Assembly (NCBI GenBank): GCA_039030125.1
Contig: JBCCEV010000003.1
Coordinates: 1-50,790 of the forward strand
Source of the DNA: Pseudomonadota bacterium
GTDB taxonomy: Bacteria; Pseudomonadota; Gammaproteobacteria; Ga0077536
Length of the DNA stretch: 50,790 bases
Reading direction: 5' to 3'
Positions 1,154 through 19,035 of the stretch are shown here, piece after piece. A program made the translations under genes and the position numbers. How positions within the stretch are numbered: position 1 is the stretch's first letter; every line of letters begins with the position of its first letter. The notes beneath the pieces are model-generated. The model worked only from the letters and a program-made list of their open reading frames with translations. It was not told the DNA's origin and made no database searches.

Positions 1154-1483
1154 TCAAGCGTTCTGCGCGGCTTCTAAATCCGCTTTTCGAGCGCGTACTT
1201 CTTCAACGTCGCACACGTTGCTATCGGCAAGAATTTTCTCCGCGGCGCTAAGCCAGTAGAGATAGTAATCTTCGCCGGTGTCGCTAGCGCCCGCAGCTTT
1301 GATCTCTTTGGCAATATAGTCGGCCCAGTCCGGCCATGTGAAATGGCCTTCTTGATGCAGGTGCACCACGATCCCAAACGCGCGCGCCTCCCACGGTTCG
1401 CGAAACACAATGTCATGGTCATCATCGAGAGGCAGGCGCGAGATCTCGTCGAGCGAGGGTAGATTTGAACGCTCGGTAGTCAC
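1154..1483 (-). CDS. Nitrile hydratase accessory/activator protein (P14K-like)
   Basis: FREPWEARAFG...FTWPDW...YYLYWLSAAE; GTG start at 1483 overlaps the beta-subunit stop (TAGTG). Confidence 0.9.
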   Translation of the reverse strand: MTTERSNLPSLDEISRLPLDDDHDIVFREPWEARAFGIVVHLHQEGHFTWPDWADYIAKEIKAAGASDTGEDYYLYWLSAAEKILADSNVCDVEEVRARKADLEAAQNA

Positions 1484-2154
1484 TAATCGTCGTCCCGCGC
1501 GGACACCAAATAGTCGTCCCAGAGATCGACGAAGATAGAGTCGTTGGCCGAAGCGCCCGCGCCCCAAACTTCCTGCGCGCTGAAATAAACGCTGTAGCAG
1601 TGCTGTGGTTTCTCGCCCTTGCCGTGCGCGCTGCTATCTGGAAAAACGAACACCCCGTGGTCCTTGTCGATGCAGCCGAGCTTATCGCGAACATATCGCG
1701 GCAGGCGCGTGTGACCCGAAGGGTTAATGTTCTTAACGATCACCATGTCGCCTTCTTTGAACTTCGGCTTCGCGTCGATATCAATGCGGGCGCTGGCGCC
1801 ATGAGAAACGATTTTCGGCACGGCTTCGGGCGCCAAGGCGGGTTCAATTTTCTCCGCGTTCGGATCGGCCTTGCCGGTGCTGAGTTCATCAGCGCTAATC
1901 AAACCGTTTGCCACCAAGACCGTTTCGAAAGCGTGAAGCCAGTGTTCGTAATAGGAACTGTCCAGATACTCCAATGCCCCCATGCGCTCGATAGCATGAC
2001 GAAATTCATCGAGGTTGTAGCCACCGGCGGCAAACGTGGTGGGAAACATCCCCATTACGCGCTTTTCCCAATCGTGATGGAACACCGGCTCGTTCTTTTC
2101 AATTTCCAGCGGGCCCATGCCTTCCATGCCGCCCATATCGTGAATACCGTTCAA
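1483..2154 (-). CDS. nthB: Nitrile hydratase beta subunit
   Basis: MNGIHDMGG N-terminus, DEFRHAIERM, SYYEHW, GHTRLPRYVR, VDLWDDYL. Confidence 0.97.
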   Translation of the reverse strand: MNGIHDMGGMEGMGPLEIEKNEPVFHHDWEKRVMGMFPTTFAAGGYNLDEFRHAIERMGALEYLDSSYYEHWLHAFETVLVANGLISADELSTGKADPNAEKIEPALAPEAVPKIVSHGASARIDIDAKPKFKEGDMVIVKNINPSGHTRLPRYVRDKLGCIDKDHGVFVFPDSSAHGKGEKPQHCYSVYFSAQEVWGAGASANDSIFVDLWDDYLVSARDDD

Positions 2155-2177
2155 CGTTTTAAACCTCAGTATTGACC

Positions 2178-2795
2178 TTAGCTTGGCGAAAGCGCTTCGG
2201 TCACGCCAATCATTGAATCACGAGTCACCAACTCGGCAAGTTCTTCCTCGCTCATGCTCGCGGTGCCTTCGGGACGCTTGGGCAGCACCATGTATCGCAG
2301 CTCCGCGGTCGAATCCCAAACCCGAACCTCGACCTCCTTCGGGAGTTTTGTCCCGAATTCCTTCAGCACACCGCGCGGATCTTTAACCACGCGAGAACGA
2401 TAGGGGGCGGCTTTGTACCACACTGGGGGCAGGCCCAGTGTTGGCCATGGATAGCACGAGCAGAGTGTGCACACGATGACGTTATGGACTTCGTCGGTAT
2501 TTTCCAGTACCACCATGTCTTCGCCTTGGATCCCCGAATAGCCCAGTTCAGAGATGGCGGCGGTGCCGTCTTCCAGCAGCCGTTGTTTGTAATCCGGGTC
2601 GCTCCATGCCTTAGCAACGACTTGCGCACCGTTGCGTGGGCCGACTTTGTTTTCGTAAGTATCAACCAGGGCATCGATCGCAGCGGGGTCGATAATCCCT
2701 TTCTCGGTTAATAGGGTTTCCAGCGCTTTAACGCGCAATTCCGGATCCGTGAGTTTCCGGTTATGCGGATGCGCGTGATCGTGGGTGTCGCTCAT
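2178..2795 (-). CDS. nthA: Nitrile hydratase alpha subunit, cobalt type
   Basis: VCTLCSCY metal-binding motif (Thr/Tyr = Co-type; Fe-type has CSLCSCT); His-rich N-terminus. Confidence 0.97.
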
Positions 2796-2809
2796 GGGAC
2801 CTCCGCAAA

Positions 2810-4330
2810 TTAGGTGTTTTTCCAGTCATATTTCTGTTCAAACGCATAGGCGGCATTCAGGATTTTCGCCTCTTCATAATGCTTGCCAATGAGCATCATA
2901 CCGATTGGCAAGCCCTCTGACATCGCGCAGGGCAGCGTCATCGCGGGATGACCGGTGGCGTCAAAAGGCGCGGTGTTGGGGAGCATCTCAAGGGCCCTGG
3001 CAACATACTCTTCGCGTGAGCAATTGGGATCTGGGATCTTGGTGGCCTTGAGCGGTAGCGTTGGCATAACTAACAGATCGTACGCCTCAAGCGCCGCATC
3101 GTAAGTCGCACGCAATTTACGAGACAGATTTTGTGCTTTTGAGTAGTACCGCCCGTTATAGGCGTTTTGCATATATTCAGCCACCAGGATCACAAGTTTC
3201 GTCGTCTCTGAAAGATCGTTTGCTCGTGTCAGGCGCCCGCCAGCGAAGGCATCGAGCAGGCTGGTATTGTACTCACCGCGCCAATTCGTACCCATGCTGT
3301 TGCCGTTGAGCATAACCTGCAAGGCACCTTCGAAAGCGATCGGGCTCCAAATCGCCGTACCATCGAGATGCATCGGAATGGAGATCGATTCGACTTCGGC
3401 GCCAAGCTTCCCGTAACTTTTGGCGGCTTTCTTGACGGCCTGATCGACATCTTTTTCCGAGAGTCCGGCCCAGCCGAAGCCCTCTTTGACGATCCCTATT
3501 TTCAAACCTTTAACATCACCGCTAAGCATCTTCGTGTAGGCCTGGGTTTTGACGCTGTATTGGCGGGGATCGAGCCCATCCTCGCCAGCGATCACCTCCA
3601 ACAGAAGCGCGCAATCGGTGACGTTTTGGGTCATGGGGCCAAGATGATCGATCGTGAGCTCAATTGGGAAGGCGCCGGTATAGGGCACCAGACCGTGCGT
3701 TGGCTTCAAACCATAGATGCCGCACCAGCTCGCCGGCATGCGCACCGAACCCCCTTGATCGCCACCGATCGCCATATCGACTTCACCCGCTGCAACGAGC
3801 GCCCCGCAACCTGCCGATGAGCCACCGGTCGTGTGTTCCGGGTTGTGTGGATTGCGCACTGGACCGGTGGCGTTGGTATGACTGCCGCCAGAGAAACATA
3901 AGTTCTCGCAAACCGCCTTGCCAACCACTTCCGCACCGGCGTCCAGGACCCGCTCAACCACGGTCGCGTCAACGTCAGGCACATAGCCTTCGAGTACGCC
4001 GCAGCCGTTCATCATGGGCACGCCGGCAACGCAGACGTTGTCTTTAATGACGACTGTCTTGCCTTTGAGCTTGCCTCGGCTCGCGCCTTTGATCGAACTT
4101 TTGTAGTACCAGGCACCGAGTGGATTTTCATCGGGCTCGGGCCGGTAACCAATACTGCGCGCATAGCGTACCGGTCGTTTAGGTTCCACCAGCTCATCGA
4201 CCCGCCGGTAAGAGTCGAGTGCGCCATCAATGAGCCCCAGAAAGGAGGCCATGTCTTCGTCGGTCAAATCGAGCCCGTGCTGGGCGGCGATGAGTTCTAG
4301 GTCTTCTGGCGTCGGGTTATTGACCGGCAT
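2810..4330 (-). CDS. Amidase (amidase signature family)
   Basis: IKDN Lys, [19 protein letters not shown] Ser-cisSer-Lys triad; directly upstream of nitrile hydratase. Confidence 0.95.
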
Positions 4331-6739: not shown

Positions 6740-8848
6740 TTAGGCGGTATTAGGGTCGATCACGAAATTACCCAGATCGTCGACCGCAACCTTCTGGTCT
6801 GGATGAACCACCATCGACGTGGTTTGCGTTTCGACCACGCAAGGGCCGTCGATGCTGTTGCCGGGTTTAAGTTTATAACCATCAAAGATGGGTGTGGCCG
6901 CGATTCGCTGCCATTCAGCCCAATAAATTTCGCGCTCGCCGGTCTGCGCATCATCGGGGATCTGGTCGCTCATTTCCGTCGCGCGTTGAAGGCTCGGTTT
7001 GATCGACGTCGCCTGGGCGCGGCAGCGAAAGGTCACCGCTTCGAGTCTGGCGCCCGGCAAGGCCGCGCCTTTGCCATAAAGCCGCTCGTAACGTTCCACA
7101 AAGCGTGCGCGCAGCGCTTCAAGCTGATCGGTGGCGACTTCGCCGCTGTCCAGATCAACCTCCACTTCGTTGATTTGTCCACGGTGGCGCATGTCAATGG
7201 AGAATGAAAATCGTTGTTGCGCTTTGGGGATCCCGTCCTCATTAAGTTGGCGTTCGCCATGTGCGTGGAGATCGCCAAGCAGCGCGTTGATTTGCGACAC
7301 GTCAAAGGGTGAGGACATGATGTTCACTTTCTCATCAACATGCAGCGTGTCTGCCGATGCGGCACCAAACGCACACCACACCGCGGCGGTATCGCCCTGT
7401 GGAACAATCACGCTTTTGACGCCGAGCTCCCGCGCGGCGACGCCCATGTGTACCGGTCCGGCGCCACCGAACGCAAAGACCACGAACTCCCGTGGATCGA
7501 GTCCTTTTTGGACGGTAACTTTGCGGATCAAATCCGCCATCTGGAACTCGGCAATCGTCGCCACGCCACTGGCTAATTCGTACAAGCTCATGCCGAGTTC
7601 ATCGGCCAGTGCTTGAAGCGCGGCTTCGGCAGCGGCTTTATCCAGCGAGAGAGTGCCGCCGGCGAAGTTTTCAGGGTCGAGATAGCCGAGCACCAAGTCG
7701 GCATCGGTGGTGGTGGGCACGGTTCCCCCGCGGCCGTAACACACCGGACCTGGCGCGGCACCCGCGCTGTCGGGGCCCACGCGTAGAGCCTTTGTAGCCT
7801 TGTCGATCCAAACTTTGCTGCCACCGCCGGTGCCCAAGGTTTGCACATCGACCTTGGGTAAGAAGTATTCGTATTGGTTGACCAAGCTCTTGTAGGAGAC
7901 CACCGGTGCGCCTTCGTGAATCACGCCGACGTCGAATGAGGTGCCGCCGAGATCGGTGGTAATGATATTGGGATGATTCATAACCTGACCGAGGTAAACC
8001 GATCCCGTGACGCCCGACACCGGTCCTGAGTCCAAGGTTAACAACGGCGCTTGTTGGGCCTTTTTAACCGAGATCGTGCCGCCAGCGCATTGGGTGATCT
8101 GAAGCGGCGGCTTGTAGCCCATATCTTTGAGGCGGGCATCAAGCCGGGTGACATAGCCAACGGTTTCCGGGCCAATGTAGGCGTTGAGCGCAACCGCCGT
8201 CGTGCGTTCGTACTCACCCCACTTCGGCGCCAGTTCCGTGGAGCAGGTGACATAGGTGTCGCCAAGGATTTCCTGGGCGAGCGCTTTGATCCGGTGTTCG
8301 TGTTTCGGTTCGAGGAAAGACCACAGGCAACAAATTGCCAAAGCTTCGCAACCGGCGCTCTTCAATTGTTCAATAGCGTGCCGGGCCTCATCCTCGTTGA
8401 GATCGACAATGACTTCGCCGAAGCAATCCACCCGCTCTGAAACTCCACGGATCAGACGCTTGGGGATCAGGGGGTCGGGCTTGCTGCTCTCTGGGATATG
8501 CACGATCAATTTAATGTCCTGACCACTCAGCCCGCGGGAACCCCGCATGATGTGGATGACATCGTTATGCCCTTTGGTGGTGACTAATCCCACCTTCGCG
8601 CCACGGCGTTGAATGATCGTGTTGGTGCCGACCGTGGTGCCGTGGGCAAGGACGCTGATGGAGTCCAACAGCTCGTCGACGGGCAGGCCGATCCGATGAG
8701 CGGCGCGGTTGATTGCTTCAAGCACACCCTCGGCGAAGTCGTGCGGTGTCGACGGTGCCTTAGCGATCGTTAGCTGTCCGCTATCGTCGATGAGAACGCA
8801 GTCGGTGAAGGTGCCGCCGATATCGAGGCCACAGAGGTAAGAGGGCAT
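6740..8848 (-). CDS. Hydantoinase A/oxoprolinase (acetone carboxylase beta-like) ATP-binding subunit
   Basis: DIGGTFTD, HGTTVGTN, SGPVSG, DLGGTSFD, GPDSAGAAPGPVCY, FGGAGP. Confidence 0.93.
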   Translation of the reverse strand: MPSYLCGLDIGGTFTDCVLIDDSGQLTIAKAPSTPHDFAEGVLEAINRAAHRIGLPVDELLDSISVLAHGTTVGTNTIIQRRGAKVGLVTTKGHNDVIHIMRGSRGLSGQDIKLIVHIPESSKPDPLIPKRLIRGVSERVDCFGEVIVDLNEDEARHAIEQLKSAGCEALAICCLWSFLEPKHEHRIKALAQEILGDTYVTCSTELAPKWGEYERTTAVALNAYIGPETVGYVTRLDARLKDMGYKPPLQITQCAGGTISVKKAQQAPLLTLDSGPVSGVTGSVYLGQVMNHPNIITTDLGGTSFDVGVIHEGAPVVSYKSLVNQYEYFLPKVDVQTLGTGGGSKVWIDKATKALRVGPDSAGAAPGPVCYGRGGTVPTTTDADLVLGYLDPENFAGGTLSLDKAAAEAALQALADELGMSLYELASGVATIAEFQMADLIRKVTVQKGLDPREFVVFAFGGAGPVHMGVAARELGVKSVIVPQGDTAAVWCAFGAASADTLHVDEKVNIMSSPFDVSQINALLGDLHAHGERQLNEDGIPKAQQRFSFSIDMRHRGQINEVEVDLDSGEVATDQLEALRARFVERYERLYGKGAALPGARLEAVTFRCRAQATSIKPSLQRATEMSDQIPDDAQTGEREIYWAEWQRIAATPIFDGYKLKPGNSIDGPCVVETQTTSMVVHPDQKVAVDDLGNFVIDPNTA

Positions 8849-8958
8849 AGGCTTGCAGGCTTTTTTGGGCAGTTCGTTGTTATGACTAAACAGGGACCAA
8901 GCCCTGTCCTCCCCAAGTTTACAATGGCCGGGGAGTGCTATAAACCGATGATAGAACC

Positions 8959-9747
8959 ATGAGTGAACCTTTGATTCAGCTTGCTCGCGATAGCCGCAAC
9001 GTCGTTACGGCCACCATGAACAGACCCGAGAAGAACAACGCTTACAACGGCGCGCTATTGCAAGCCCTAACCGGGGCGCTGGCGTCTTCACGCAATGATG
9101 ACGCGGTGCGCGCCTTGGTTGTTCGCGGCGCCGGTAAACACTTTCAGGCCGGCGCCGATCTCGATTGGATTGGCGCACTCAGCAAGCAGGACAGCGCTGC
9201 GAACCGAGCGGCCTCGGCGTTGACCAGCAATACGATGAAGGCCTTGTTTGAATTTCCGGTACCGACGATTGCACTGATCCAGGGCGCGTGTATCGGCGGC
9301 GGCACAGGGATCGCCGCATCTTGCGACATTGTGATCGCCGAGGAAAACGCGGTTTTCGCGATCAGCGAAGCACGCTGGGGAATGATCGCAAGCATCATTT
9401 TTCCGCAGCTGGTTCAGGCGATCGGTTTGCGACACGCGCGCCGTTACGCATTAAGCTGCGAGCGTTTTGACGCCACCCAAGCAAAGCTAATGGGTTTCGT
9501 TCACGAAGTAGTGAATCCTGGTGGCCTTGATGTAGCGCTCGAGGCACTCCTTGCCTCATTGCTGCGGGCCGGGCCGGAGGCGCTGCGAGAGAGCAAACGG
9601 TTGTTGTTAGCGCACCCCGATGTCCAATGGCACGAACTCGAAGCCGCGCATGCCAAGGCGCGTCAAAGCGCTGAGGCCGCAGAGGGGATTATGAGTTTCA
9701 AACAACGACGCGACCCATCCTGGTTCTCCCCGACCGATCTCCCTTAG
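8959..9747 (+). CDS. Enoyl-CoA hydratase/isomerase family (methylglutaconyl-CoA hydratase-like)
   Basis: NRPEKNNA, FQAGADL, GACIGGG, FAISEARWG. Confidence 0.9.
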   Translation: MSEPLIQLARDSRNVVTATMNRPEKNNAYNGALLQALTGALASSRNDDAVRALVVRGAGKHFQAGADLDWIGALSKQDSAANRAASALTSNTMKALFEFPVPTIALIQGACIGGGTGIAASCDIVIAEENAVFAISEARWGMIASIIFPQLVQAIGLRHARRYALSCERFDATQAKLMGFVHEVVNPGGLDVALEALLASLLRAGPEALRESKRLLLAHPDVQWHELEAAHAKARQSAEAAEGIMSFKQRRDPSWFSPTDLP

Positions 9748-10493
9748 CGCAGGTGCGCCGCCACGCATTTAATGCCGGGTTTCAAATTGAAGCGCTTCTT
9801 CACGATCCTAAGGCCGTGGCGATTGAGCAATCGCGCGAGCGTGAGGTAGCTGAAGTAATAGAGGTGTTCGGAGGGTTTGATCTCGGACCATTCGCCAAGA
9901 TCCCGGGGTACCCGCCAATGTCCGACGTCCGGGGTACCGATATCAATAATGCCGTCGGGTTTGAGGATCCTTTTCAGCTCTTCGACGAACGCCGGCAATT
10001 CGGGGACGTGCTCGATAACGTCATACATGGAGATCACATCGAAGTGTTGATCGGGAAAATCACAGCTTAAAAGTTGCCCGTGACTCAGGTTGGCCAAACC
10101 CAATGAGTGCTTGCCGTAGTTGATGGCCGCTGCTTCCAGATCGACGCCCCAGGCTTCGAAGCCGGCCTCGGTCGCGGCTTTTACAATGAATCCCGCAGAA
10201 CACCCCACGTCGAGCCAGCGGCCGGTGCGTTCGTACCGGCTTTTGATTCTGGCAACTCTGCCGTGCGCGCGTTTAAGCTTTTTCTCGGCTTTGGCGAGGT
10301 AGGTATCACTATAGGCGGCGTCGTAAGTTTCGCTAACGGCATCGAATCGCGGCCGAGGGTTGATAAGGACCAATGTGCAGCTCTGGCACCTCACGAAAGG
10401 CTCGCCTTGTTTTTCGAACAGGTCGGCGAAATCATCGCCGTCGCAAACGGGACAGCGGATTTTTTCAAAGTTAGCAGTGGCCGATCCGCTCAT
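9744..10493 (-). CDS. Class I SAM-dependent methyltransferase with N-terminal Zn-ribbon
   Basis: CPVC...CQSC, LDVGCSAGF, DVIEHV, LKPDG, EHLYYFS. Confidence 0.88.
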   Translation of the reverse strand: MSGSATANFEKIRCPVCDGDDFADLFEKQGEPFVRCQSCTLVLINPRPRFDAVSETYDAAYSDTYLAKAEKKLKRAHGRVARIKSRYERTGRWLDVGCSAGFIVKAATEAGFEAWGVDLEAAAINYGKHSLGLANLSHGQLLSCDFPDQHFDVISMYDVIEHVPELPAFVEELKRILKPDGIIDIGTPDVGHWRVPRDLGEWSEIKPSEHLYYFSYLTLARLLNRHGLRIVKKRFNLKPGIKCVAAHLR

Positions 10494-11188
10494 TCACCGA
10501 CGCTTTCAATCAACACACCCACCGAACCCCCGCGGGCCGTGAACGCCAGGTAGCGGTATTGGATTTGGTGCGACGCTACGTATTGTTGAAACGCCTTGAA
10601 TTCGTGTGCCTGCCAATTGGGATAATTGAAATACTCATCGAACACGATAACGGTGCCGGGGACAATGCGTTTAGCAAGGTTTGAGAAAATGGTGGCCGTG
10701 GAGGAGTAAAGGTCGCAATCGACGTGAATAAACCGCACCGGATCGTGCTCAGCGACGAGGAATGCCGGTAGAGTTTGGTCGAACAAGCCTTGCTGGAGCT
10801 GCACGTTGGCGGGAACCTTGGGCAAGCCTTCGCGCTTGAATTTACCCTGGGATTCGGTCGTACCCGCCCAATCTTCGGGCAGACCTTCAAAAGTATCGAA
10901 GCCGTAAATTGTCGTGCCCCCAAAGAGTTTGGCCAGCTTGCGGATGCTGCTACCGGTGGCGACGCCGAACTCAAGGCATAGACCATCGCGATTGGTCTGC
11001 TTTGCGCAGTATGCGAACAATTCGTCCTGTCCGCGGCAGATGATCGCCTCTGCCATGCGCGACATCACATAATCCGCCGAGTCCGCGCGCGCCCGGTTTT
11101 GCAGCTCCAGCAACAGGTCTTTGGAATAGAACTTGTGCACAAAGCGCCGATACCAGCGTTCGCGGAGGTTGGCGAAGGGGTTTTTCAT
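10490..11188 (-). CDS. TylF/MycF-like class I SAM-dependent methyltransferase
   Basis: LEFGVATGSS, GFDTFEGLPEDW, HVDCDLYSST, VFDEY; start set at ATG 11188 (MKNPF) rather than the longer ORF. Confidence 0.85.
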   Translation of the reverse strand: MKNPFANLRERWYRRFVHKFYSKDLLLELQNRARADSADYVMSRMAEAIICRGQDELFAYCAKQTNRDGLCLEFGVATGSSIRKLAKLFGGTTIYGFDTFEGLPEDWAGTTESQGKFKREGLPKVPANVQLQQGLFDQTLPAFLVAEHDPVRFIHVDCDLYSSTATIFSNLAKRIVPGTVIVFDEYFNYPNWQAHEFKAFQQYVASHQIQYRYLAFTARGGSVGVLIESVGE

Positions 11189-11297
11189 GGTTTTCCAAGA
11201 CCCGGAATAAGGCGCTATTTTAGCGATATCAAACAGCGCCGCGAGGCTTACTAAGTGATTAGAATAAGTATCTGTGGCGTAGGGGAGGAGACCTAAG

Positions 11298-12230
11298 GTG
11301 GGTATTGAGTTTACCCCTTCGGGAGTAATGACGATCACGACGGACTTCGGTCATCGTGGGCCGTTTGTCGGCACCATGAAAGGCGTGATCCTCAGCCGCG
11401 TACCGAGCACGCAAATCATCGATCTAACCCATGAGGTGTATGTCCATTGGCCGGCCGAGGCGGGATTTTGGCTGCGGCGCGCCTATTGTTATTTCCCCCG
11501 CGGCACCGTCCATTTAGCGGTCGTAGACCCGGGCGTGGGGACGGCCAGGGATATGTTGCTCGTCCTCGCCGACGGCCACGCCTTTATCGCTCCTGATAAT
11601 GGTTTGCTTGGCGAGGTCATTGAAAATTTGGACGGCGCGGTGCTTCGCTTGCAGGGCCGAGCCGTTGACAACCTGAAACTGGATAATGTCAGCGCCACCT
11701 TTCATGGCCGTGATGTGTTTGCGCCAATTGCAGCCGCGCTTGTCGCTGGAGACGCGTCGCCTGCCGACTTGGGCGAGCTTACCGAAGACTATATTCCTTC
11801 AATCGTTGAACCGCCGGAGCGCAGGGGGTCGCAGTGGATAGGGATCGTGATCACGTCTGATAACTTCGGCAATTTGATCACCAATATCGAATCGCAAGCG
11901 CTTGACGGTATGCGCAATCCCGTTGTGAGCGTTGGTGGGCGGGAAATTGCGGTGGCAAGAACGTATGGGGAGGTAACGCCCGGCAATTTTCTCGCATTGG
12001 TCAACTCGTTCGGCGTTGTCGAGATCGCTTGCGCCGAGGGTAGCGCCGCCCATGAACTTGGTATCGCGCGGGGAGCACCGGTAAGCCTCGCTGATGCGGG
12101 GCTAGTCGGAAAGACCAAGAGCCGCCAAGATGAACCAAACAGCGAACGCAGCATTGCCTCTCCCGCCCGGGCCGGCAGGTCTACCAATCCTCGGTTCCTT
12201 ATTATCGATGGGCCAACTCCCGCACCTTAG
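11298..12230 (+). CDS. DUF62 SAM hydrolase (SAM hydroxide adenosyltransferase; fluorinase/chlorinase superfamily)
   Basis: ITTDFG, VVDPGVGTAR, APDNG, SATFHGRDVF, DNFGNLITN. Confidence 0.92.
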   Translation: MGIEFTPSGVMTITTDFGHRGPFVGTMKGVILSRVPSTQIIDLTHEVYVHWPAEAGFWLRRAYCYFPRGTVHLAVVDPGVGTARDMLLVLADGHAFIAPDNGLLGEVIENLDGAVLRLQGRAVDNLKLDNVSATFHGRDVFAPIAAALVAGDASPADLGELTEDYIPSIVEPPERRGSQWIGIVITSDNFGNLITNIESQALDGMRNPVVSVGGREIAVARTYGEVTPGNFLALVNSFGVVEIACAEGSAAHELGIARGAPVSLADAGLVGKTKSRQDEPNSERSIASPARAGRSTNPRFLIIDGPTPAP

Positions 12231-13542
12231 TGTTCACCAAATCACGCGCAAATATGGCGACGTGTGTGGCATAAAGCTCGGTAACGTCTTTACCGTTTTT
12301 ATCTCCCATCCCCAGCTCCTTAATGAAGCGTTCAGCAAAACCACGGTCTCCGATCGGTGGATGGGCGAGATCATGGGCGCGCTATCGGGCGGCGGTGCCG
12401 ATATGGTTTTCATGAATTACGGTGATCAGTGGCGGCAAATGCGACGCTATGCGAACCATGATCTGTTCAACACCAAGCGTCTCGCGCAAATTCGCGTCGA
12501 GCACATGGAGCAGGTGGTTGCGGAATTGGTCGATGACCTCAAACGCTGCGCCGCCGAGCACGAGACCTGCGAGCCGTCGATACTGATCCCGGAGAGTAAC
12601 GCCGAACTTATTTTTCGTTGTTGCTTTGGTTTGCCGCAAGAACGCGAGGAAGGCTTTGCTGAATCGCGCAAAGCGCTTCTCGATATCACTTTCTGGGCAT
12701 TTGAAAACGCCAGCGCCACGAATCCCGCTGACTACCTCCCGCTGTTGTCTTTTTTACCGAACAATGCCGTGGGTAAAGCCCAGGAGGTGGCCGCCGATCG
12801 TGATCGCTTGATCGATGATTTGATCGACACCGTACGGCAACGTCCGGGGCGCAATGCCAACGCGCCAACGTGTTTGCTCGATGTGATGCTCGCTAAACAA
12901 GAATTGGGCGAAGTCGATCAACCGACCGTGCGCTATATGATGGGCGACATGCTGGCAGCCGGTATTGATACAACGGCCCAAACGCTCGCTTGGACCTTGC
13001 TGTTAGTCGCCAATCGGCCTGCCGTACAACAGCGAATCCACGAGGAAATAGATGCCATTGCGCCGGGTGAGGAGCCGCCCGATTATGCCAAGCGCGGCGA
13101 GTTACCTTATCTTGAGGCAGTGCTTCTTGAGAGTATGCGCTATCGCACGATCGGGCCGTTTGCGGTTCCGCATAAGGCCGTCGAGGACACCGAAATCGAC
13201 GGCTTTAGGATCCCCGCCGGCTCGCAAGTATTAGCCAATGTCTATTCAATTCATAACGACCCGCGATTCTGGGATCGCCCTGATCAATTCATTCCACAGC
13301 GTCATATCGGCGTAGAAAAATCAGAACGCAAGAAATATTCGACGCTCGTGCCATTCAGTGTGGGTCGCCGTCAATGTCCGGGTCAGAATTTCGCGATGAT
13401 TTCCATGTGGTTGCATCTAACCCGGATATTCCACGGCTTCCAATTGTCGCCTTCATCGAGCGGGCTGTTGCCCGAAGATGAAGTGTTCGGTCTGACCGTC
13501 TCTCCCAAGCCCTACAAACTCACGGTTACCGCCCGGCACTAA
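12130..13542 (+). CDS. Cytochrome P450 (eukaryote-like E-class)
   Basis: PPGP hinge, I-helix AGIDTT, ExxR (ESMR), PERF-like FIPQRH, heme-binding PFSVGRRQCPG. Confidence 0.95.
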   Translation: MNQTANAALPLPPGPAGLPILGSLLSMGQLPHLSVHQITRKYGDVCGIKLGNVFTVFISHPQLLNEAFSKTTVSDRWMGEIMGALSGGGADMVFMNYGDQWRQMRRYANHDLFNTKRLAQIRVEHMEQVVAELVDDLKRCAAEHETCEPSILIPESNAELIFRCCFGLPQEREEGFAESRKALLDITFWAFENASATNPADYLPLLSFLPNNAVGKAQEVAADRDRLIDDLIDTVRQRPGRNANAPTCLLDVMLAKQELGEVDQPTVRYMMGDMLAAGIDTTAQTLAWTLLLVANRPAVQQRIHEEIDAIAPGEEPPDYAKRGELPYLEAVLLESMRYRTIGPFAVPHKAVEDTEIDGFRIPAGSQVLANVYSIHNDPRFWDRPDQFIPQRHIGVEKSERKKYSTLVPFSVGRRQCPGQNFAMISMWLHLTRIFHGFQLSPSSSGLLPEDEVFGLTVSPKPYKLTVTARH

Positions 13543-14368
13543 TACCGCGGGTATGCGGGCCCAGGGCGCTTAGCAGCAGGCCAACCTTCACGATGTAGTT
13601 GGAGATTAAATGGGGCGCGGCAAACGTTTCGAGGGCTTCGACGACGGCAGGCCTGGAACTGGTCTTGGACGGGATCTCAATGAGGCCAGCCAGCGCTCGG
13701 CCTTGCTGATGAGCGTGGTCTTGCACGGTGGCGATGCAGCTTGCGATCTCGTCGCGATAAGGTCTGAAACCTCGAACAGTTTCGCTAAGGAAGGCCGGCC
13801 AGTGCGCGAGATGCCGCGGTACGCCTGCGATCACCGGGCCAAGCGGGCGGCCGGTCCCAAGCGCCTCTAATGCCCGCGCATCGGCGCGCAGGGCCGCGCT
13901 CATTTTCGATTCAGGGATCAATTCCGGTAGTGTCCCAATGGCCGCCTCGGTGTTTGCCATCGCTGTTGTTTTGGGCGCTGGCGAGGCCGGCTGCCCCTCA
14001 AGGGCCGCGAGCAAGGCGCACAGCGCGATAAGGTTAGCCGGGTTTGTTCTCTGGTAGTTTTTCAGAACGTCTTCGATCCTCAACCACGCTTCGGTATCGA
14101 GGGAGGCCGTATTGAAGTCAATGGAAAACGAGGCCAGTTTCGCCGGCCGCTCGAAATCCCGCACGCTACTCGCCGCAGATCCAAGATAGCCATCGGTATA
14201 CAGTGGCCTTAGGGACTTCCAAACCCAGCCCAAGGCCCCATCGAAGGCCGCCAGATGGCGCCAGATAAGGTTCACCGTGGGCGCGTTCAAGACCGTGCGA
14301 ATATCTTCATACAGCTCGGCGATTTCACCGGCAGCGGCGTCTTCGGTGACGCTCGGAAGTTTATCCAC
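13526..14368 (-). CDS. Hypothetical protein, DehI-like (group I haloacid dehalogenase-like) two-repeat protein
   Basis: Repeat 1 EDAAAGEIAELYEDIR..LNAPTVNLIWRHLA..W..LRP; repeat 2 IPESKM...PRHLAHWPAFL...FRP. Confidence 0.55.
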   Translation of the reverse strand: MDKLPSVTEDAAAGEIAELYEDIRTVLNAPTVNLIWRHLAAFDGALGWVWKSLRPLYTDGYLGSAASSVRDFERPAKLASFSIDFNTASLDTEAWLRIEDVLKNYQRTNPANLIALCALLAALEGQPASPAPKTTAMANTEAAIGTLPELIPESKMSAALRADARALEALGTGRPLGPVIAGVPRHLAHWPAFLSETVRGFRPYRDEIASCIATVQDHAHQQGRALAGLIEIPSKTSSRPAVVEALETFAAPHLISNYIVKVGLLLSALGPHTRGISAGR

Positions 14369-14376
14369 GCGCGTGA

Positions 14377-15252
14377 CTACAACCTTGCAATCACTTCATC
14401 GCCGAGTTTCTTAACGTAGTCACTGATGTCCGATTCTGTAGCGCTCAAGTTGAACAGCTCACCGCCAGTGGTCGGAGACAATGCAATAAGACGCTCGATG
14501 CCCAAGTCTTGATAACGTTTGGCTAAGTCCAAATCGATGTTGCCAAACGGGGTGACGCTGAGCTCAAGCTTGCCCAGGTGCGCGGGGCGGTTGCCGCGGG
14601 CCAAGGCCGCCTCCAAGCCTTGCACGCACTCAGCGGTCGCTTCCGGGGACAGACCAAAGCCGTACCAACCATGACCGTGACTTACCGTTCGTTCAAATGC
14701 GCCCTGGACGTGACCGCCGAAGATCACGGGGGGACCGCCCTTTTGCAATGGTCTGGGCAAGGCTTTCACTCCAGCGAAAGAAACGAAATCGCCGTCGTAG
14801 CTGGGGTCCTCTTCGTTCCAAATGCTTTGCATCGCTTCGAGGTACTCCACAGTACGCGGACCTTTATCTTTAAAAGAAACGCCAAGCGCATCGAATTCCG
14901 CTTTGAGATATCCGATACCAACGCCAAACAGCAGACGGCCACCGCACAATACATCAAGGCTGGCCATCTCCTTGGCAAGCACCAGCGGGTTACGCTGGGG
15001 CAGGATGATGATCCCCGTGCCAAATTTGATTTGCTGGGTCTGAGCAGCCAGCCAGGCAAACGAAATATTGGGATCAAGCATTGGGTAATCTGGTGGTAAT
15101 GGCGAGCCTTCAACTTGCGGATCTGGAAGCACGATGTGTTCACCGGCCCACAATGAATCAAAGCCTGCCGCTTCGGCTATTTTTGCGACGTGGCTGCTCG
15201 CTAACGGATCGCTGAGTGGCCCCATATTGATCCCAAAAAGTCCAAATTCCAA
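14377..15252 (-). CDS. LLM-class (luciferase-like) probably F420-dependent oxidoreductase, Rv2161c-like
   Basis: AEAAGFDSLWAGEH, LPQRNPLVLAKEMASLDVLCGGR..GVGIGYLKAEF; TTG start with GGAGG upstream. Confidence 0.88.
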   Translation of the reverse strand: MEFGLFGINMGPLSDPLASSHVAKIAEAAGFDSLWAGEHIVLPDPQVEGSPLPPDYPMLDPNISFAWLAAQTQQIKFGTGIIILPQRNPLVLAKEMASLDVLCGGRLLFGVGIGYLKAEFDALGVSFKDKGPRTVEYLEAMQSIWNEEDPSYDGDFVSFAGVKALPRPLQKGGPPVIFGGHVQGAFERTVSHGHGWYGFGLSPEATAECVQGLEAALARGNRPAHLGKLELSVTPFGNIDLDLAKRYQDLGIERLIALSPTTGGELFNLSATESDISDYVKKLGDEVIARL

Positions 15253-15320
15253 AAGCTCAACCCTCCATACAGCGTGCTGCCGATTATAGGTAACTCGGGC
15301 TTCGTTCGATTGCGCCAGGC

Positions 15321-15350
15321 AAAAAAAAAGGGCTCCCTGGCAGGAGCCCT
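15321..15350 (-). terminator. Rho-independent terminator
   Basis: Minus strand AGGGCTCC-TGCCAG-GGAGCCC followed by 9 T. Confidence 0.9.
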
Positions 15351-15480
15351 AAATAACTCGTCGCGTAAGCTAAGGGCTGGCTTGATCGCGTCGATTCACT
15401 CCAACGACTTGATTCGCACCGCTCCTAGAAGCGCCGCAAAGAAGTCGTTGAAGCACAGTGCATCGGTTGCGAGATGCACG
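15321..15480 (-). ncRNA. Candidate sigma-54-dependent small RNA (~160 nt)
   Basis: Lies between a -24/-12 promoter and an intrinsic terminator; 5' hairpin GTGCATC-N8-GATGCAC at predicted +1; long stem CTTCAACGACTT...AAGTCGTTGGAG; no credible ORF. Confidence 0.65.
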
Positions 15481-15490
15481 AGTTCGACTA

Positions 15491-15507
15491 AGCAAGCCCG
15501 ATGCCAG
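15491..15507 (-). promoter_or_regulatory. Sigma-54 (-24/-12) promoter
   Basis: Minus strand CTGGCATCGGGCTTGCT: GG-N10-GC, matching the TGGCA...TTGCW consensus. Confidence 0.75.
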
Positions 15508-15580
15508 CTTGGCTATCACGTTGTTTTGTCCGGTTTTTTGTATTTGACGTGCGTTTACCGGCCGGGCATCCGCGAGAAAG

Positions 15581-15640
15581 TGTAAAAATCCTTTAACAAA
15601 ATGCTCATGCTAAGTGCGTGATTTTCTGGCGATTTTTACA
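15581..15640. promoter_or_regulatory. Putative enhancer-binding-protein sites
   Basis: TGTAAA-AATCCT-TTAACA at 15581-15598; TGTAAAAATC (15581-15590) and GATTTTTACA (15631-15640) form a perfect 10-bp inverted repeat 100-160 nt upstream of the predicted start. Confidence 0.5.
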
Positions 15641-16360
15641 CTAATCGGTTGGATTCACGGTGAGTTCGCGCAGATCCAGATAGCTTCCCGAGGGTGCATT
15701 TCTGATGGCACTGAGCGCCTGACCGATCCGCTGGGCGACGATCTCGGGGGGCGGCATGCCGGCGGTTCCCATCGCTTGTTGAAGACGGGCCGTGGACGAG
15801 AACCTCGTTGCATCGACCGTTTTAATGTAGTCCTGCATCGCGGTGTGGATCAGGCCTGGCGCCAATGCGCACAGGTGGGTTGCCGGCAGTTCATCGCGAT
15901 AGAGCTGGGTCAACATATTGAGCGTCGCTTTTGACAGCGCATAACTCCCCCAACCGCGATTTCCATTAACGCCCGCGCCGGAGGACACTAAAACGACTTG
16001 CTCCGGCGGCGTGTCAAGCTGGCACATCCAGTCCAAGATAATTTTGTTCGCCCACACATTAACTTCCATCGCCGCGCGAATATCTTGCAGCGGGGTGTCG
16101 ACCATATCTCTGAACGGCTGCAACACTCCGGCGTTGAGGTACGCCAGATGGATGGTCCCGCGCGATGACTCGATCGTCGAGAGCGTTTTCTCAAGTGCGG
16201 CAGTGTCCGCGAGGTCACATTGCATGCTAATCAACGCATCATCCGTGAGCGCTGGGCGCCGCCGGCTGATCCCCAATACCGCGTCGTCGGTTTCGAGATG
16301 GTAGCGGGCAAGCGCCTCACCAAGGCCACTACTGTGTCCCGTGATCAAGACCTGTCTCAT
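15641..16360 (-). CDS. Short-chain dehydrogenase/reductase (sepiapterin/benzil reductase-like)
   Basis: ITGHSSGLG, NAG, SSGA, YALSK, APGLIHTAMQ. Confidence 0.9.
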   Translation of the reverse strand: MRQVLITGHSSGLGEALARYHLETDDAVLGISRRRPALTDDALISMQCDLADTAALEKTLSTIESSRGTIHLAYLNAGVLQPFRDMVDTPLQDIRAAMEVNVWANKIILDWMCQLDTPPEQVVLVSSGAGVNGNRGWGSYALSKATLNMLTQLYRDELPATHLCALAPGLIHTAMQDYIKTVDATRFSSTARLQQAMGTAGMPPPEIVAQRIGQALSAIRNAPSGSYLDLRELTVNPTD

Positions 16361-16455
16361 CGCCGGATCTCCGTCAGGTTTGAATTACCATAACATCTGC
16401 GGCAACGTCCGCTTGGAACACTCTACAATCGCCTTAAGAATAACGATCTCGTGCT

Positions 16456-17610
16456 ATGGAATTCGATTCGCTTGATGAAAAAACGCTGAGGCTGCGAACC
16501 GGCGAGAAGTGGCAGCAGTATCCGCCGGATGTCTTGCCGGCATGGGTCGCGGATATGGATTTCGAGCCGGCCGAAGCGATCGCGACAGCGTTGCGCGAGC
16601 GCCTCGATAACGCCGATTTGGGCTACCCGCGGGCGTTTCGCGATACCGGATTGGCCGAACTTTTTGTTACCCGCATGGCGGACCGTTTCGCCTGGCACGT
16701 AAAAGCTGGAGACATCACCCCGATCAACGATGTGGTGCAGGGGATCTATCTCGGCTTGTTGAGCATTGCCGAGCGCGGTGATGGCGTGATTATCCAAACA
16801 CCAATCTATCCGCCATTTTTGCGCGCGGCCAAACACACCGAGCGCGCGGCTCTGATTTGTCCACTACGAATGGGCGGGAGTCGCTATGAAATCGATTTCG
16901 ATGACTTGCGCGATGCGGCGCGCAAGGGTGCCCGGGTGTTGTTGTTCTGCAATCCTCACAACCCGACGGGACGGGCCTTTAGCCAACGTGAACTCGAGGA
17001 GTTGGCAAACTTCGCGGTTGAAAATGATCTGTGGGTGATCTCAGATGAGATTCACGCCGATCTAACCCTTGGCGACACCCAGCATATCCCTATCGCGTCG
17101 CTGAACGAACAAATTGCCGAGCGCACAATAACGCTCATGTCGGCGAGCAAAGCCTTTAATATTGCCGGTCTGTGCATGGCTTTCGTGCACTGCCAAGGCG
17201 CGCAGCTCAAGAAACTATTTGCCAGCATTCCAGCCCATACGAGAGGGGGCACCAACGCCCTCTCAATTGCCGCGGTCAGGGCGGCCTGGACGCAAGGCGG
17301 TGCTTGGCAAACCAGCTTACGTGCGCAGTTAACCAGCAACCGCGATACCGTCGCCCGACGTGTCGGTGTTTGGAGCGATTTTCTGCACCAGCCGCCGGAG
17401 GCGACCTATCTGGCCTGGATCGATTGCAATCACACTGCGATCGCGGATAAACCCTATGAGTTTTTTCTGGAAAAGGCGCGGGTTGCACTGAGCGATGGCC
17501 GCGCTTTCGGCCGCGCTGGTGAGGGGTTTGTGCGTCTCAACTTCGCGACCTCAAGCGCGTTGCTCGACGAGATACTTAGCCGCCTGGAAGATGCGATCGC
17601 CGAGATTTAG
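16456..17610 (+). CDS. PLP-dependent MalY/PatB family C-S lyase (cystathionine beta-lyase-like)
   Basis: WVADMDF, CNPHNPTG, SDEIHAD, SASKAFN, EATYLAWID, RLNFAT. Confidence 0.92.
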   Translation: MEFDSLDEKTLRLRTGEKWQQYPPDVLPAWVADMDFEPAEAIATALRERLDNADLGYPRAFRDTGLAELFVTRMADRFAWHVKAGDITPINDVVQGIYLGLLSIAERGDGVIIQTPIYPPFLRAAKHTERAALICPLRMGGSRYEIDFDDLRDAARKGARVLLFCNPHNPTGRAFSQRELEELANFAVENDLWVISDEIHADLTLGDTQHIPIASLNEQIAERTITLMSASKAFNIAGLCMAFVHCQGAQLKKLFASIPAHTRGGTNALSIAAVRAAWTQGGAWQTSLRAQLTSNRDTVARRVGVWSDFLHQPPEATYLAWIDCNHTAIADKPYEFFLEKARVALSDGRAFGRAGEGFVRLNFATSSALLDEILSRLEDAIAEI

Positions 17611-19035
17611 TTATCCTTGACGGTAGGTCCAAGCAAGCACGGCATTCTGTAATTCCGTGCCGCTACCCCAGTGCACATCCTTGTGATTAACGAATAGCGA
17701 TACTGCGAATGTCTCGCCGCTTTGTGCGCGCACAAAGCCCGCGATCGCCACCACATCATCAAGGCGGCCGGTTTTAAGGTGCATTTTCCCGGCTTCGCGT
17801 TTGCCGCGAAAGCGTTTGCGTACCGTTCCATCCTTACCGGATATCGCCATCGAGGAGACGAACTCAGGCATATACGGATGGCGCCAGGCGGTGAGGAGCA
17901 TGGCGTTCATAAACTCGGCGCTCAATCGCGAGCGACGCGACAGGCCGGCGCCGTTGTCGATGATGATGTTGCCGGCGGGCAGGCCTAGATCGAGCAAATG
18001 AGTCTGCGCTTGCTGGGCTCCCTGCAGCGGCGTTACCGGCGGCGTTTGTTGTACCGCGGCCAAGGTTAGCAGCAGTTGGCGCGTCATCAGGTTATTGCTC
18101 CATTTGTTCAAGGGGCGAATAATTTCTGCGAGCTCGCGACCGCGCCAAACCAAGCGCGGGGTTTCCTGTGCTTCGACCTCATCGTTTTTGTAGGTGCCCT
18201 CGATGCGGCCTCCCCATTGGCGGAATAAAAACTTGAACATCCCATAAACATAAGCCGGGTGTGAAAGCGCGGTGCGGGCTAAATCATATTTACGGCAGCT
18301 TGCGGGCATGGAGCCGGAGAATCGCACCTCGTCGGCGGCTGGCAAGTTACGAACATCCATGATGATTTTTAAACCGTTGCCGCGGCATTTCCCGTTTACC
18401 AGCTTAACGGTCGATTGAACGTTCAGATTTGGCAGCGGTGGATTGTGGATGACGTTGACCTTGCCGGCGCCGCGGTTTGGAACCAACTTAAAGTCGAAGG
18501 CCTTGAAATTAACGCTTAGGGCGCTCGGCTGGACGTTGTAGAGGCGGTGGGATTGACCATCGAAATCATCCTCATCTCCGGGGATCGGCGCGAAAATGCT
18601 GTCGTCGATCACTAAATCGCCGGTGATCTTCTCGATGCCAAGCTGATTTCGAATCTCGCCGACGAGCTTCCAGAACTCCTCGGTCACGAGATAGGGATCG
18701 CCGTGCCCTTTGAGTACAAGGTCGCCATCTAACGTGCCATTTTTTAAAGAACCACGGATATAAACTTCGGTTTTCCAGGTGTGATTGGGTCCAAGCAGAT
18801 CGAGCGCGACAAAGGTGGTTACCAATTTTATCGACGACGCCGGGTTGCGAAGAACTTCAGCGTTGAGTGACAGGCGTGGCGAAGTCTCGCTGGTACTTTG
18901 CACGATCACACTGACGCCACTTGCCGGAATATTGTGCGCCTTCATCACCCGGGCAATCGGTTGAGGTAGCTGAGCGGCCGCGCCCGCTGAACCAAGAGCA
19001 AGTGCGCACGCCACCGCTATAAGGACGGTTCGCAT
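17611..19035 (-). CDS. dacB: D-alanyl-D-alanine carboxypeptidase/endopeptidase PBP4
   Basis: Signal peptide, PASSIK (SxxK), SNN, GAGLSR, KTG. Confidence 0.93.
   Translation of the reverse strand: MRTVLIAVACALALGSAGAAAQLPQPIARVMKAHNIPASGVSVIVQSTSETSPRLSLNAEVLRNPASSIKLVTTFVALDLLGPNHTWKTEVYIRGSLKNGTLDGDLVLKGHGDPYLVTEEFWKLVGEIRNQLGIEKITGDLVIDDSIFAPIPGDEDDFDGQSHRLYNVQPSALSVNFKAFDFKLVPNRGAGKVNVIHNPPLPNLNVQSTVKLVNGKCRGNGLKIIMDVRNLPAADEVRFSGSMPASCRKYDLARTALSHPAYVYGMFKFLFRQWGGRIEGTYKNDEVEAQETPRLVWRGRELAEIIRPLNKWSNNLMTRQLLLTLAAVQQTPPVTPLQGAQQAQTHLLDLGLPAGNIIIDNGAGLSRRSRLSAEFMNAMLLTAWRHPYMPEFVSSMAISGKDGTVRKRFRGKREAGKMHLKTGRLDDVVAIAGFVRAQSGETFAVSLFVNHKDVHWGSGTELQNAVLAWTYRQG

Follow-up and report, generated by a model that had tools for sequence, protein, structure and literature searches.

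The origin of animal clan 2 and of the plant CYP71 clan, the two largest eukaryotic radiations of cytochrome P450, is unsettled, and no description of close prokaryotic relatives of either clan was found in full-text literature searches. The question is raised anew by a gene at 12130..13542 (+) of contig JBCCEV010000003.1, which comes from a marine gammaproteobacterium and is 50,790 nucleotides (50.8 kb) long; the whole of this stretch is referred to here as the window. The gene is an uninterrupted open reading frame (ORF) for a single-domain P450 of 470 amino acids that resembles the microsomal enzymes of animals and plants but has no N-terminal membrane anchor. How did such a gene come to stand in a bacterial chromosome, and what might it do there? 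An earlier note on this DNA, made from the sequence alone, had offered two answers, an ameliorated transfer from a eukaryote or a bacterial sister lineage of clan 2. From the searches, trees and synteny comparisons reported here, we consider it likely that this is an intact anchor-less P450 of an uncharacterised bacterial family of clan-2/CYP71-like type, which was acquired horizontally between bacteria, long ago.

An anchor-less P450 of eukaryotic type

Pfam family PF00067 covers the translated protein end to end (residues 12-466 on profile positions 1-462, E 2e-96), and its score of 324 bits, against a curated cut-off of 22.8 bits, is so far past chance that the identity of the ORF as a P450 is firm; the product is a real, full-length member of the superfamily. 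The heme-thiolate loop FxxGxRxCxG, the ExxR motif and the acid-alcohol pair of the I-helix are all present, and the seven motifs quoted in the earlier note are all found in the translation, at residues 11-24, 41-45, 97-106, 198-210, 343-377, 408-418 and 453-462. Conservation can be read from A1, an alignment of 30 of the best 119 protein matches described below, which has more than 100 invariant columns, every one of them retained by the window's P450. The landmarks, all on the forward strand, begin with the PPGP proline hinge (residues 12-15, 12163..12174), which lies at the very start of the protein, not preceded by any transmembrane helix, and whose P13, G14 and P15 are invariant in 30/30 sequences. 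They continue with the I-helix motif AGIDTT (residues 277-282, 12958..12975), in which G278 and the acid-alcohol pair D280-T281 are invariant, and with the K-helix ExxR, here ESMR (residues 334-337, 13129..13140), in which E334 and R337 are. The PERF-like motif (residues 389-392, 13294..13305) keeps the invariant P389 and R391 and reads PQRH, with H in place of F392 of the family consensus PERF. The heme-binding loop FSVGRRQCPG (residues 409-418, 13354..13383) has invariant F409, G412, R414, C416 and P417, and its thiolate, Cys416, is encoded at 13375-13377. Because all of the residues for O2-activating monooxygenation are retained, we take the intact protein to be an active hydroxylase, presumably a soluble O2-activating heme-thiolate monooxygenase.

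The highest 19-residue Kyte-Doolittle mean within the first 60 residues is 1.19, the threshold for tagging an anchor being set at 1.7; about 57 of the 67 N-anchored representatives that were kept (see below) score above 2 in N-terminal hydropathy. The earlier note's remark that the gene lacks both an N-terminal anchor and introns is thus borne out by the hydropathy and by the uninterrupted frame. An AlphaFold2 (AF2) model of the protein has a predicted local distance difference test (pLDDT) score of 75.8 and a predicted template-modelling (pTM) score of 0.80.

The likeness to eukaryotic enzymes is seen at the level of sequence, fold and learned features alike. When the P450 was searched against PDB sequences, the best 60 of 303 matches were all eukaryotic microsomal P450s, with CYP73 (6vby, 9e-63) and zebrafish CYP17A2 (4r20, 9e-62) at the top, followed by CYP1A2, CYP1A1 and CYP1B1, CYP76AH and CYP2D6. 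A Foldseek search of PDB with the AF2 model returned CYP1A1, CYP76AH3, CYP2D6, CYP76AH1, CYP1A2 and CYP17A1 as its best matches (template-modelling (TM) scores 0.73-0.85, 22-28% identity), and the closest feature clusters in ESM-Atlas are eukaryotic as well. Bacterial models in NCBIfam matched only below threshold, the best with 131 bits against a cut-off of 700. The assignment to the clan-2/CYP71 type (E-class group I), and not to the class I P450s of bacteria, which had been made from the motifs, is therefore supported by the PDB sequence, fold and Atlas matches, all of them eukaryotic. The PPGP hinge is not in itself diagnostic of eukaryotes, since CYP4/102-like P450s of the host's own taxonomic family also begin '...LPLPPGP'. 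By the convention of CYP nomenclature, identity of at least 40% defines a family and 55% a subfamily. Membership in any named eukaryotic family of clan 2 or the CYP71 clan (such as CYP1, 2, 17, 21, 71, 73 and 76) was rejected on an identity of at most 35% together with the absence of an anchor; the named proteins compared, from frog, grass, camel and fungus, are 23-30% identical.

Bacterial relatives and the chromosomal slot

Close relatives of the P450 were found in bacteria. Among 5.8 billion proteins there were 419 matches; leaving aside the protein of the window itself, the top 119 show 43-51% identity to it and mostly have 470-480 residues. A scan of one genome per species with the single P450 protein gave no match, and alignment A1 was required; with it the scan yielded 77 loci, whose records are all titled Dehalococcoidia, SAR202 cluster or Chloroflexi/Chloroflexota, several of them being sponge-metagenome bins. 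All but three of the 119 top matches (116/119) have at least 70% identity to a protein from among these loci. P0002, the closest match, is 51% identical to the P450, and its own best identity among the 77-locus proteins is 50.5%; a scan of metagenome contigs with an alignment of the query and P0002 found no further relative. The earlier note had singled out best matches within an established bacterial family as the outcome that would speak against it. The best matches are indeed bacterial, but they belong to none of the named families on its list.

When 1.84 billion cluster representatives were searched exhaustively, 55,281 matched at E <= 1e-3 and 2,032 at E <= 1e-30. Among the single-domain matches the top ranks belong to anchor-less proteins of 450-485 residues that are 32-44% identical to the query, and the next to proteins of about 500 residues whose N-terminus is hydrophobic and whose hinge lies at residues 28-60; these are at most 35% and mostly 28-33% identical. 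Many multi-P450 models of 800-1,600 residues are interleaved among these ranks, and a search for longer, fused forms names such models as frog, grass, camel and fungal proteins. Among the best 150 representatives, the nearest after the P450's own family are all of eukaryote type, with no second bacterial family between. The anchor-less family is internally deep, identity falling to about 37% among its representatives.

Several trees were made. The first, by FastTree, has 104 rows consisting of the query, seven family members, 83 of the 150 representatives and nine E-class and four class I P450s from the host and related genomes; the other 67 representatives were dropped as multi-domain, shorter than 430 or longer than 560 residues. 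In this tree the anchor-less rows, 22 in number, form a clade (local support 99) that lies within a eukaryote-type assemblage. The second, by IQ-TREE, has 49 hand-picked rows and the mixture model LG+C20+F+G4 (posterior mean site frequency (PMSF) approximation, quick mode). In this tree the bacterial clade of 15 rows has a Shimodaira-Hasegawa-like approximate likelihood-ratio (SH-aLRT) support of 100, an animal-like clade of 12 rows 100 and a plant-like clade of ten rows 99, and all 44 rows group together (SH-aLRT 99) against five bacterial E-class outgroup rows, which are CYP4/46/97/102-like by their PDB matches. In the third, a tree of 42 rows of the family with ultrafast bootstrap (UFBoot), the bacterial clade has supports of 95.3/99, and the query and P0002 together are sister to all other members. 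The anchor-less bacterial family is monophyletic, and to judge by the outgroups used, the lineage of the P450 appears to be part of the clan-2/CYP71 supergroup. The clades were labelled by best PDB match (for the representatives P0201, CYP76AH, isoflavone synthase and C4H; for P0161, CYP2D6; for P0187, CYP17A1; and for P0142, CYP17A2 and CYP1B1), and named rows in a fast maximum-likelihood (ML) tree fell accordingly, a grass indole-2-monooxygenase in the plant-like clade and a frog CYP2A5-like protein and a camel protein in the animal-like clade.

The P450 shares with the Dehalococcoidia-type family a full-length identity of 44-51%, above the 40% mark, a common clade (supports 100 and 95.3/99), a length of about 470 residues, an N-terminal hinge and a single domain. 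Under the nomenclature convention it and the Dehalococcoidia genes would count as one CYP family but, at less than 55% identity, as different subfamilies. No paper that describes the family was found in full-text literature searches, which do not cover the CYP nomenclature files, where it may already have a number. The counts around one carrier (G041, itself counted), with the family in 3/301 genomes of the class, 7/201 of the order and 2/28 of the taxonomic family, identify the anchor-less P450 as a patchy accessory gene in Dehalococcoidia.

The host of the window's copy is a gammaproteobacterium. The contig carries YhdP, RNase G, MnmA, aconitase, NhaB, HemW, RdgB, RNase PH, Gmk, SpoT, RidA, RecG and UbiA, so that core genes of gammaproteobacteria stand on both sides of the P450 on one contig; the 13 NhaB homologues at 73-81% identity that have an organism name are from Gammaproteobacteria (nine), Proteobacteria (three) and Pseudomonadota (one). 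An orthologue of the P450 was not found in 24 genomes of the same taxonomic family, where the best match is 31% identical (E 3e-40), nor, at E <= 1e-60, in samples of 300 genomes of the same class and 400 of the same phylum.

The genes around the P450 have been compared by tblastn with six 20-kb regions of relatives. The order conserved in these relatives is hydantoinase B, hydantoinase A, methyltransferase, S-adenosylmethionine (SAM) hydrolase, a slot of variable content, short-chain dehydrogenase (SDR), aminotransferase, DacB, CMD and DUF488. In one relative (L110) the SAM hydrolase (9482-10321, +) is followed only 17 bp later by the SDR (10338-11060, -), and in two others (L105 and L109) an unrelated ORF of 283-304 residues fills the slot. 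In the window the slot, 12130-15252, holds a three-gene block of about 3.2 kb, consisting of the P450, a 280-residue DehI-like protein and an F420-dependent oxidoreductase of the luciferase-like monooxygenase (LLM) class. On the left it is flanked by the SAM hydrolase (11298..12230, +; SAM_HAT_N and SAM_HAT_C by Pfam and NCBIfam), a native and vertically inherited host gene with orthologues of 54-66% identity in 13/15 genomes of the taxonomic family, and on the right by the native SDR gene (15641..16360, -; Pfam), of which 3/6 relatives have orthologues, 47-49% identical, at the same position. The DehI-like gene (13526..14368, -) has no Pfam or NCBIfam match; its product has a weak N-terminal likeness to DehI and (R)-2-haloacid dehalogenases (phmmer against PDB, 5gzy 4.5e-6 and 3bjx 3.9e-5) and is sporadic, with homologues in 3/24 genomes of the taxonomic family. 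The F420/LLM gene (14377..15252, -; TIGR03619) has no counterpart at this position in the six relatives. A terminator-like hairpin of nine pairs with a T8 tail (15329..15350, -) follows the SDR gene and separates it from the inserted LLM and DehI-like pair.

Since the block occupies an insertion slot in an otherwise syntenic region, the P450 is read as horizontally acquired, and since its nearest relatives are bacterial (44-51% identity, as against at most 35% for eukaryote-type proteins), the origin of this copy is read as inter-bacterial and not as directly eukaryotic. The gene has a GC content of 0.548, a third-position GC (GC3) of 0.614 and a synonymous-codon fit of -1.12, all inside the range of 29 other window genes, whereas the homologous Dehalococcoidia genes have a mean GC of 0.634; on account of this host-like composition the transfer is read as old. 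Our conclusion is that the P450 is an accessory gene, gained by horizontal transfer and since ameliorated, that occupies a variable slot of the chromosome. The three genes would have entered between SAM hydrolase and SDR by inter-bacterial transfer, long enough ago for composition to have come to match the host; within the family the query and P0002 form the basal branch. The borders of the insertion show neither direct or inverted repeats nor scars of mobile elements.

Overlaps of the P450 with genes on both sides had been noted earlier, and of these the downstream one, a convergent overlap of 17 nt with the DehI-like gene, stands. The upstream one, of 101 nt, arises because the SAM hydrolase as written carries a 46-residue tail over the start of the P450, and it is probably an assembly indel. 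Logan's independent assembly, made from the sole sequencing run in which this DNA was found, is one G shorter in the G homopolymer at 12098..12101 (+). With three G the hydrolase stops at a TAG at 12103-12105, 25 nt before the ATG of the P450, and ends in '...RGAPVSLADAG', where the proteins of six relatives end; it is this restored C-terminus that points to the indel. Neither promoter-like nor terminator-like sites were detected between the SAM hydrolase and the P450, no sigma-70-like promoter in 11000-15800 and no Rfam family in 8000-18000.

Other genes of the host may be mentioned here. An enoyl-CoA hydratase (8959-9747, +) and a TylF-like O-methyltransferase (10490-11338, -) are absent from all six of the relatives' syntenic regions and are further host-specific insertions adjoining the P450 slot. 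A nitrile hydratase (alpha, beta and accessory beta-like) and amidase cluster at 1157-4330 (-) adjoins the hydantoinase/oxoprolinase (acetone-carboxylase-like) pair, 8-11 kb upstream of the P450; because a relative (G014) has an orthologue of 71-72% identity in the same place, the cluster is native and lies outside the insertion. Plant CYP79/71 enzymes take part in aldoxime-nitrile chemistry, which by analogy had suggested a link between this cluster and the P450. An IS200-like (Y1_Tnp) transposase lies at the contig end (49882-50580, -). The host genome, which is 88% complete and in which no 16S rRNA gene was found, has ten PF00067 matches on contigs C60, C27, C106, C128, C115, C11 and C132. 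Three are E-class (the P450 at 12130..13542, a CYP4/46/102-like and a CYP97/3A/102-like protein) and seven are class I-like, three of the seven being on C106. The host's own CYP4/46/102-like P450s (L089 and L090) are 27-29% identical to the P450 of the window.

Deep ancestry of the family

The probable arrival of this copy from another bacterium leaves the more distant past of the family to be considered. It is possible, though we regard it as doubtful, that the whole anchor-less family stems from one ancient transfer of a microsomal clan-2/71-type P450 from a eukaryote to a bacterium. A similarly tentative sequel would be that the anchor was lost and the PPGP hinge kept, that the enzyme came to be supplied with electrons independently of cytochrome P450 reductase (CPR), and that the gene later moved between Chloroflexota and Gammaproteobacteria. 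Such a history concerns the deep past of the family and is compatible with inter-bacterial transfer of the window's copy. The retention of a hinge without an anchor is in keeping with it, as are the rarity and patchiness of the family in bacteria (the counts given above for class, order and taxonomic family) and the rank order among the 1.84 billion representatives, where eukaryote-type proteins come next after the family itself and no other bacterial family appears in the best 150. Both FastTree and the fast ML tree with its frog, camel, grass and fungal rows nest the bacterial clade among eukaryote-type rows.

The backbone of this nesting is less firm than its clades. Under the site-heterogeneous model of the IQ-TREE analysis it is a polytomy, and approximately unbiased (AU) tests, which were made with iqtree2 constrained searches under LG+F+G4, a simpler model than the mixture, reject none of the four topologies compared (p 0.17-0.65). 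The topology of best likelihood joins the bacteria to the animal-like group (p 0.65), as a eukaryotic ancestry would have it; the unconstrained topology has p 0.43, the union of bacteria with the plant-like group p 0.17, and the monophyly of all eukaryote-type rows, which speaks for the opposite case, p 0.48. The stem of the bacterial clade is long (0.5-0.8), so the nesting may be long-branch attraction, and the branch of the fungal row placed with it measures 1.58. The tree rows were picked by similarity to the query, and they comprise neither other eukaryotic clans nor bacterial families from outside the host's own taxonomic family. The hinge, too, loses weight as a eukaryotic trait, as other bacterial E-class P450s also have LPLPPGP.

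If the family is not of eukaryotic descent, it may be an ancient bacterial lineage, either the sister of the eukaryotic clan-2/CYP71 radiation or kin to the progenitor from which that radiation arose, a view that we think rather unlikely. The AU result for a single eukaryote-type clade can be cited for it, together with the internal depth of the family (about 37% identity among anchor-less representatives) and the apparent ability of its carriers to manage without CPR, as would be expected of a bacterial P450. Against such antiquity stands the very patchy distribution, so far confined to one class plus this genome, and the corresponding topology was the best in none of the trees made. Of the two proposals in the earlier note, then, amelioration is upheld by the host-like composition, but the copy at hand is not itself a transfer from a eukaryote, its nearest relatives being bacterial; a sister lineage of clan 2 is compatible with the AU tests and with the grouping of the family with clan-2/CYP71 rows (SH-aLRT 99), but was not recovered as the best tree.

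On either history, a monophyletic, soluble bacterial family would be the nearest prokaryotic neighbour of the two eukaryotic clans and thus a test object for distinguishing capture from sister lineage. An enzyme of the clan-2/CYP71 fold that is soluble by nature would, moreover, lend itself to structural and biocatalytic studies. Should a eukaryotic ancestry prove true, the family would be a rare documented case of a eukaryotic P450 of detoxification or biosynthesis type naturalised in bacterioplankton.

Electron supply, remaining alternatives and known systems

A P450 of this type would be served by CPR in eukaryotes, and the source of its electrons in a bacterium needs to be asked. A Pfam scan of the 46 other non-overlapping ORFs of the window found neither a ferredoxin nor a P450 reductase, in agreement with the earlier note, and no ORF with a ferredoxin-type Cys motif lies near the P450. 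No redox-partner gene was found adjoining family P450s in the Dehalococcoidia loci; matches there to a 3Fe-4S-like regular expression were mostly in other frames of the P450 ORF and were discarded. Among proteins of 824-2350 residues no fused member of the family was seen, only four eukaryotic tandem P450 models, which is weak evidence. A CYP102-like self-sufficient fusion was rejected because the P450 is a single domain of 470 residues. A class I three-component system was likewise rejected, the sequence being E-class and neither the window nor the adjoining Dehalococcoidia genes having a ferredoxin or reductase; a ferredoxin acting in trans is possible.

The earlier note had suggested a search of the genome for a diflavin reductase, and there is one. 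The host's only PF00667 protein has 645 residues with Flavodoxin_1, FAD_binding_1 and NAD_binding_1 domains and is CysJ-like, scoring 557 bits with TIGR01931 (equivalog cut-off 668) and 434 bits with NF004859 (cut-off 432). Its gene lies on a contig other than that of the P450 and adjoins a gene for a sulfite/nitrite-reductase hemoprotein (CysI-like). The only other trace of a flavodoxin domain in the host is a fragment at a contig end, and CPR was not found in this 88%-complete genome, the CysJ-like protein being its sole diflavin candidate. None of five Dehalococcoidia carrier genomes (0/5) has a PF00667 protein, three of the five being complete chromosomes by their record titles, and so the anchor-less family apparently does not depend on CPR. 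It is improbable, in our judgement, that in this host the CysJ-like protein, a bacterial homologue of CPR, reduces the P450 directly in the manner of a class II system. The host does encode one protein with FMN, FAD and NADPH domains and a P450 of the type that CPR serves, but the candidate scores as cysJ, stands beside a sulfite/nitrite-reductase gene on another contig and has no PF00667 equivalent in the Dehalococcoidia carriers, so that the family as a whole does not seem to be reliant on one.

For microsomal P450s, bacterial flavodoxin systems can serve as a source of electrons. The most likely donor to the present P450 is a ferredoxin or flavodoxin system acting in trans, and a ferredoxin-type donor agrees with the general statement, in the part of Landry et al. 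2017 (PMC5395668) that concerns bacterial P450s, that reduced ferredoxin is their usual donor. The enzyme would activate O2 at its heme by means of the D280-T281 pair and the Cys416 thiolate and hydroxylate some organic substrate, with electrons reaching it in trans from a partner other than CPR, which would be a ferredoxin/flavodoxin system or, for this host alone, its CysJ-like diflavin reductase.

The neighbours of the family's genes were evaluated at 69 of the 77 Dehalococcoidia loci, eight having been dropped when an overlap filter removed the P450 ORF. A glucose-methanol-choline (GMC) oxidoreductase stands directly upstream (-1) on the same strand in 27/69 loci, a dienelactone hydrolase at -2 in 17/69 and an FmdA/AmdA-like gene, convergent, downstream in 20/69. 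The GMC neighbour suggests hydroxylation followed by oxidation of the alcohol in Dehalococcoidia, and dienelactone hydrolase, GMC oxidoreductase and P450 may form a possible three-gene oxidative module in SAR202-type bacteria. The P450 is the sole gene that the window has in common with these loci. With it, the marine gammaproteobacterium appears to have gained an extra oxygenase, accompanied by a DehI-like protein and an F420/LLM oxidoreductase, and presumably attacks a wider range of organic compounds.

A number of observations weigh against the view that this is an intact gene acquired long ago from other bacteria. The query and P0002 are sister to the sampled Dehalococcoidia sequences and not nested in them, the group formed by the rest having supports of 71/90, and taxa are known for the carriers of the 77 loci but not for P0002 and 12 other anchor-less representatives. 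The A1 scan used two peptide patterns and finds only relatives that keep them, so that its all-Chloroflexota outcome is biased. The PERF motif is PQRH, the quality of the AF2 model is moderate (pLDDT 75.8), and the absence of GMC oxidoreductase, dienelactone hydrolase and FmdA/AmdA-like genes from the window means that a function suggested by the Dehalococcoidia context cannot be carried over, the GMC gene above all. Only one DNA run, the probable source, and no RNA run is listed with the stretch, and two further runs of the same study contain next to none of its words. The independent assembly, finally, breaks inside the P450 at 13074-13103, where a contig of 3,288 nt and depth 6.4 shares 30 nt with it, and continuity at this point rests on the window's assembler, on equal depth (8.08 and 7.98) and on colinearity with the family. 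A second contig of the same metagenome, of 362 nt and depth 4.1, has an exact 30-mer in common with the P450 at 12347-12376 and then diverges. These contigs may represent a related gene or a strain variant in the sample.

Such assembly details, namely the low depth (about 8), the single run, the branch point at 13074-13103 and the 1-nt indel 30 nt upstream of the gene, together with the degenerate PERF motif, might also suggest a mis-assembled or mis-binned piece of Chloroflexota, or a decaying, non-functional relic. We give this very little credence. The independent assembly has single contigs over both junctions to the syntenic host genes (10500-13103 and 15083-17000) at an even depth of 8.0-8.7, gammaproteobacterial core genes flank the P450 on the same 50.8-kb contig, its GC content is that of the host and not the 0.634 mean of the Dehalococcoidia homologues, and the ORF is intact with every family-invariant residue kept. 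A recent and direct transfer from a eukaryote to the gammaproteobacterium, to which the eukaryotic solved structures and Atlas clusters might point, is contradicted and hardly conceivable, as the P450 is 44-51% identical to bacterial relatives as against at most 35% for eukaryote-type proteins and 23-30% for named ones, it lies inside the anchor-less bacterial clade (supports 100 and 95.3/99) and its composition is host-like.

Inter-bacterial acquisition thus remains our preferred account of the P450, and its product can be set beside systems that are already known. Other eukaryote-like, soluble E-class P450s of bacteria whose direction of descent is debated are bacterial CYP51, treated with Dehalococcoidia entries included in part of PMC7947880, and CYP102A1, or P450-BM3; both belong to other clans than the window's P450, and P450-BM3 is fused to its reductase while the present protein is a single domain for which no fused relative was found. 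The GPP34-P450 fusions of sponge symbionts, as outlined in part of PMC11706023, differ from it in architecture. Distant P450 matches in open frames of about 676 residues in two Chloroflexota genomes (G043:C42:584663-585148 and G044:C34:363-866) may be fusions of this latter kind. The SAR202 P450s that Landry et al. propose as first-step oxidisers of recalcitrant dissolved organic matter come from the same ecological group of carriers, but those passages of PMC5395668 that deal with them name only the CYP125 type and no clan-2/71-like family. Closest to the window's P450 are the members of its own family in marine Dehalococcoidia/SAR202-type bacteria, for example those of JBGPJN010000125.1, OZ240206.1 and MPNC01000010.1 (SAR202 bin87), which are 44-51% identical to it over the full length and have the same size of about 470 residues, hinge at 12-15, lack of an anchor and more than 100 invariant residues; unlike theirs, its host is of the phylum Pseudomonadota and not Chloroflexota. 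Beyond the family, its best sequence (E 9e-63 to 1e-46) and fold (TM 0.73-0.85) matches are the eukaryotic microsomal P450s of clan 2 and the CYP71 clan. With CYP73A, CYP17A2, CYP1A1, CYP1A2, CYP1B1, CYP76AH1, CYP76AH3 and CYP2D6 it shares the PPGP hinge, the I-helix, the ExxR motif and the heme loop, and it differs from them in having no N-terminal membrane anchor, in being encoded by a bacterial gene and in belonging to a family whose carriers, where examined, have no CPR.

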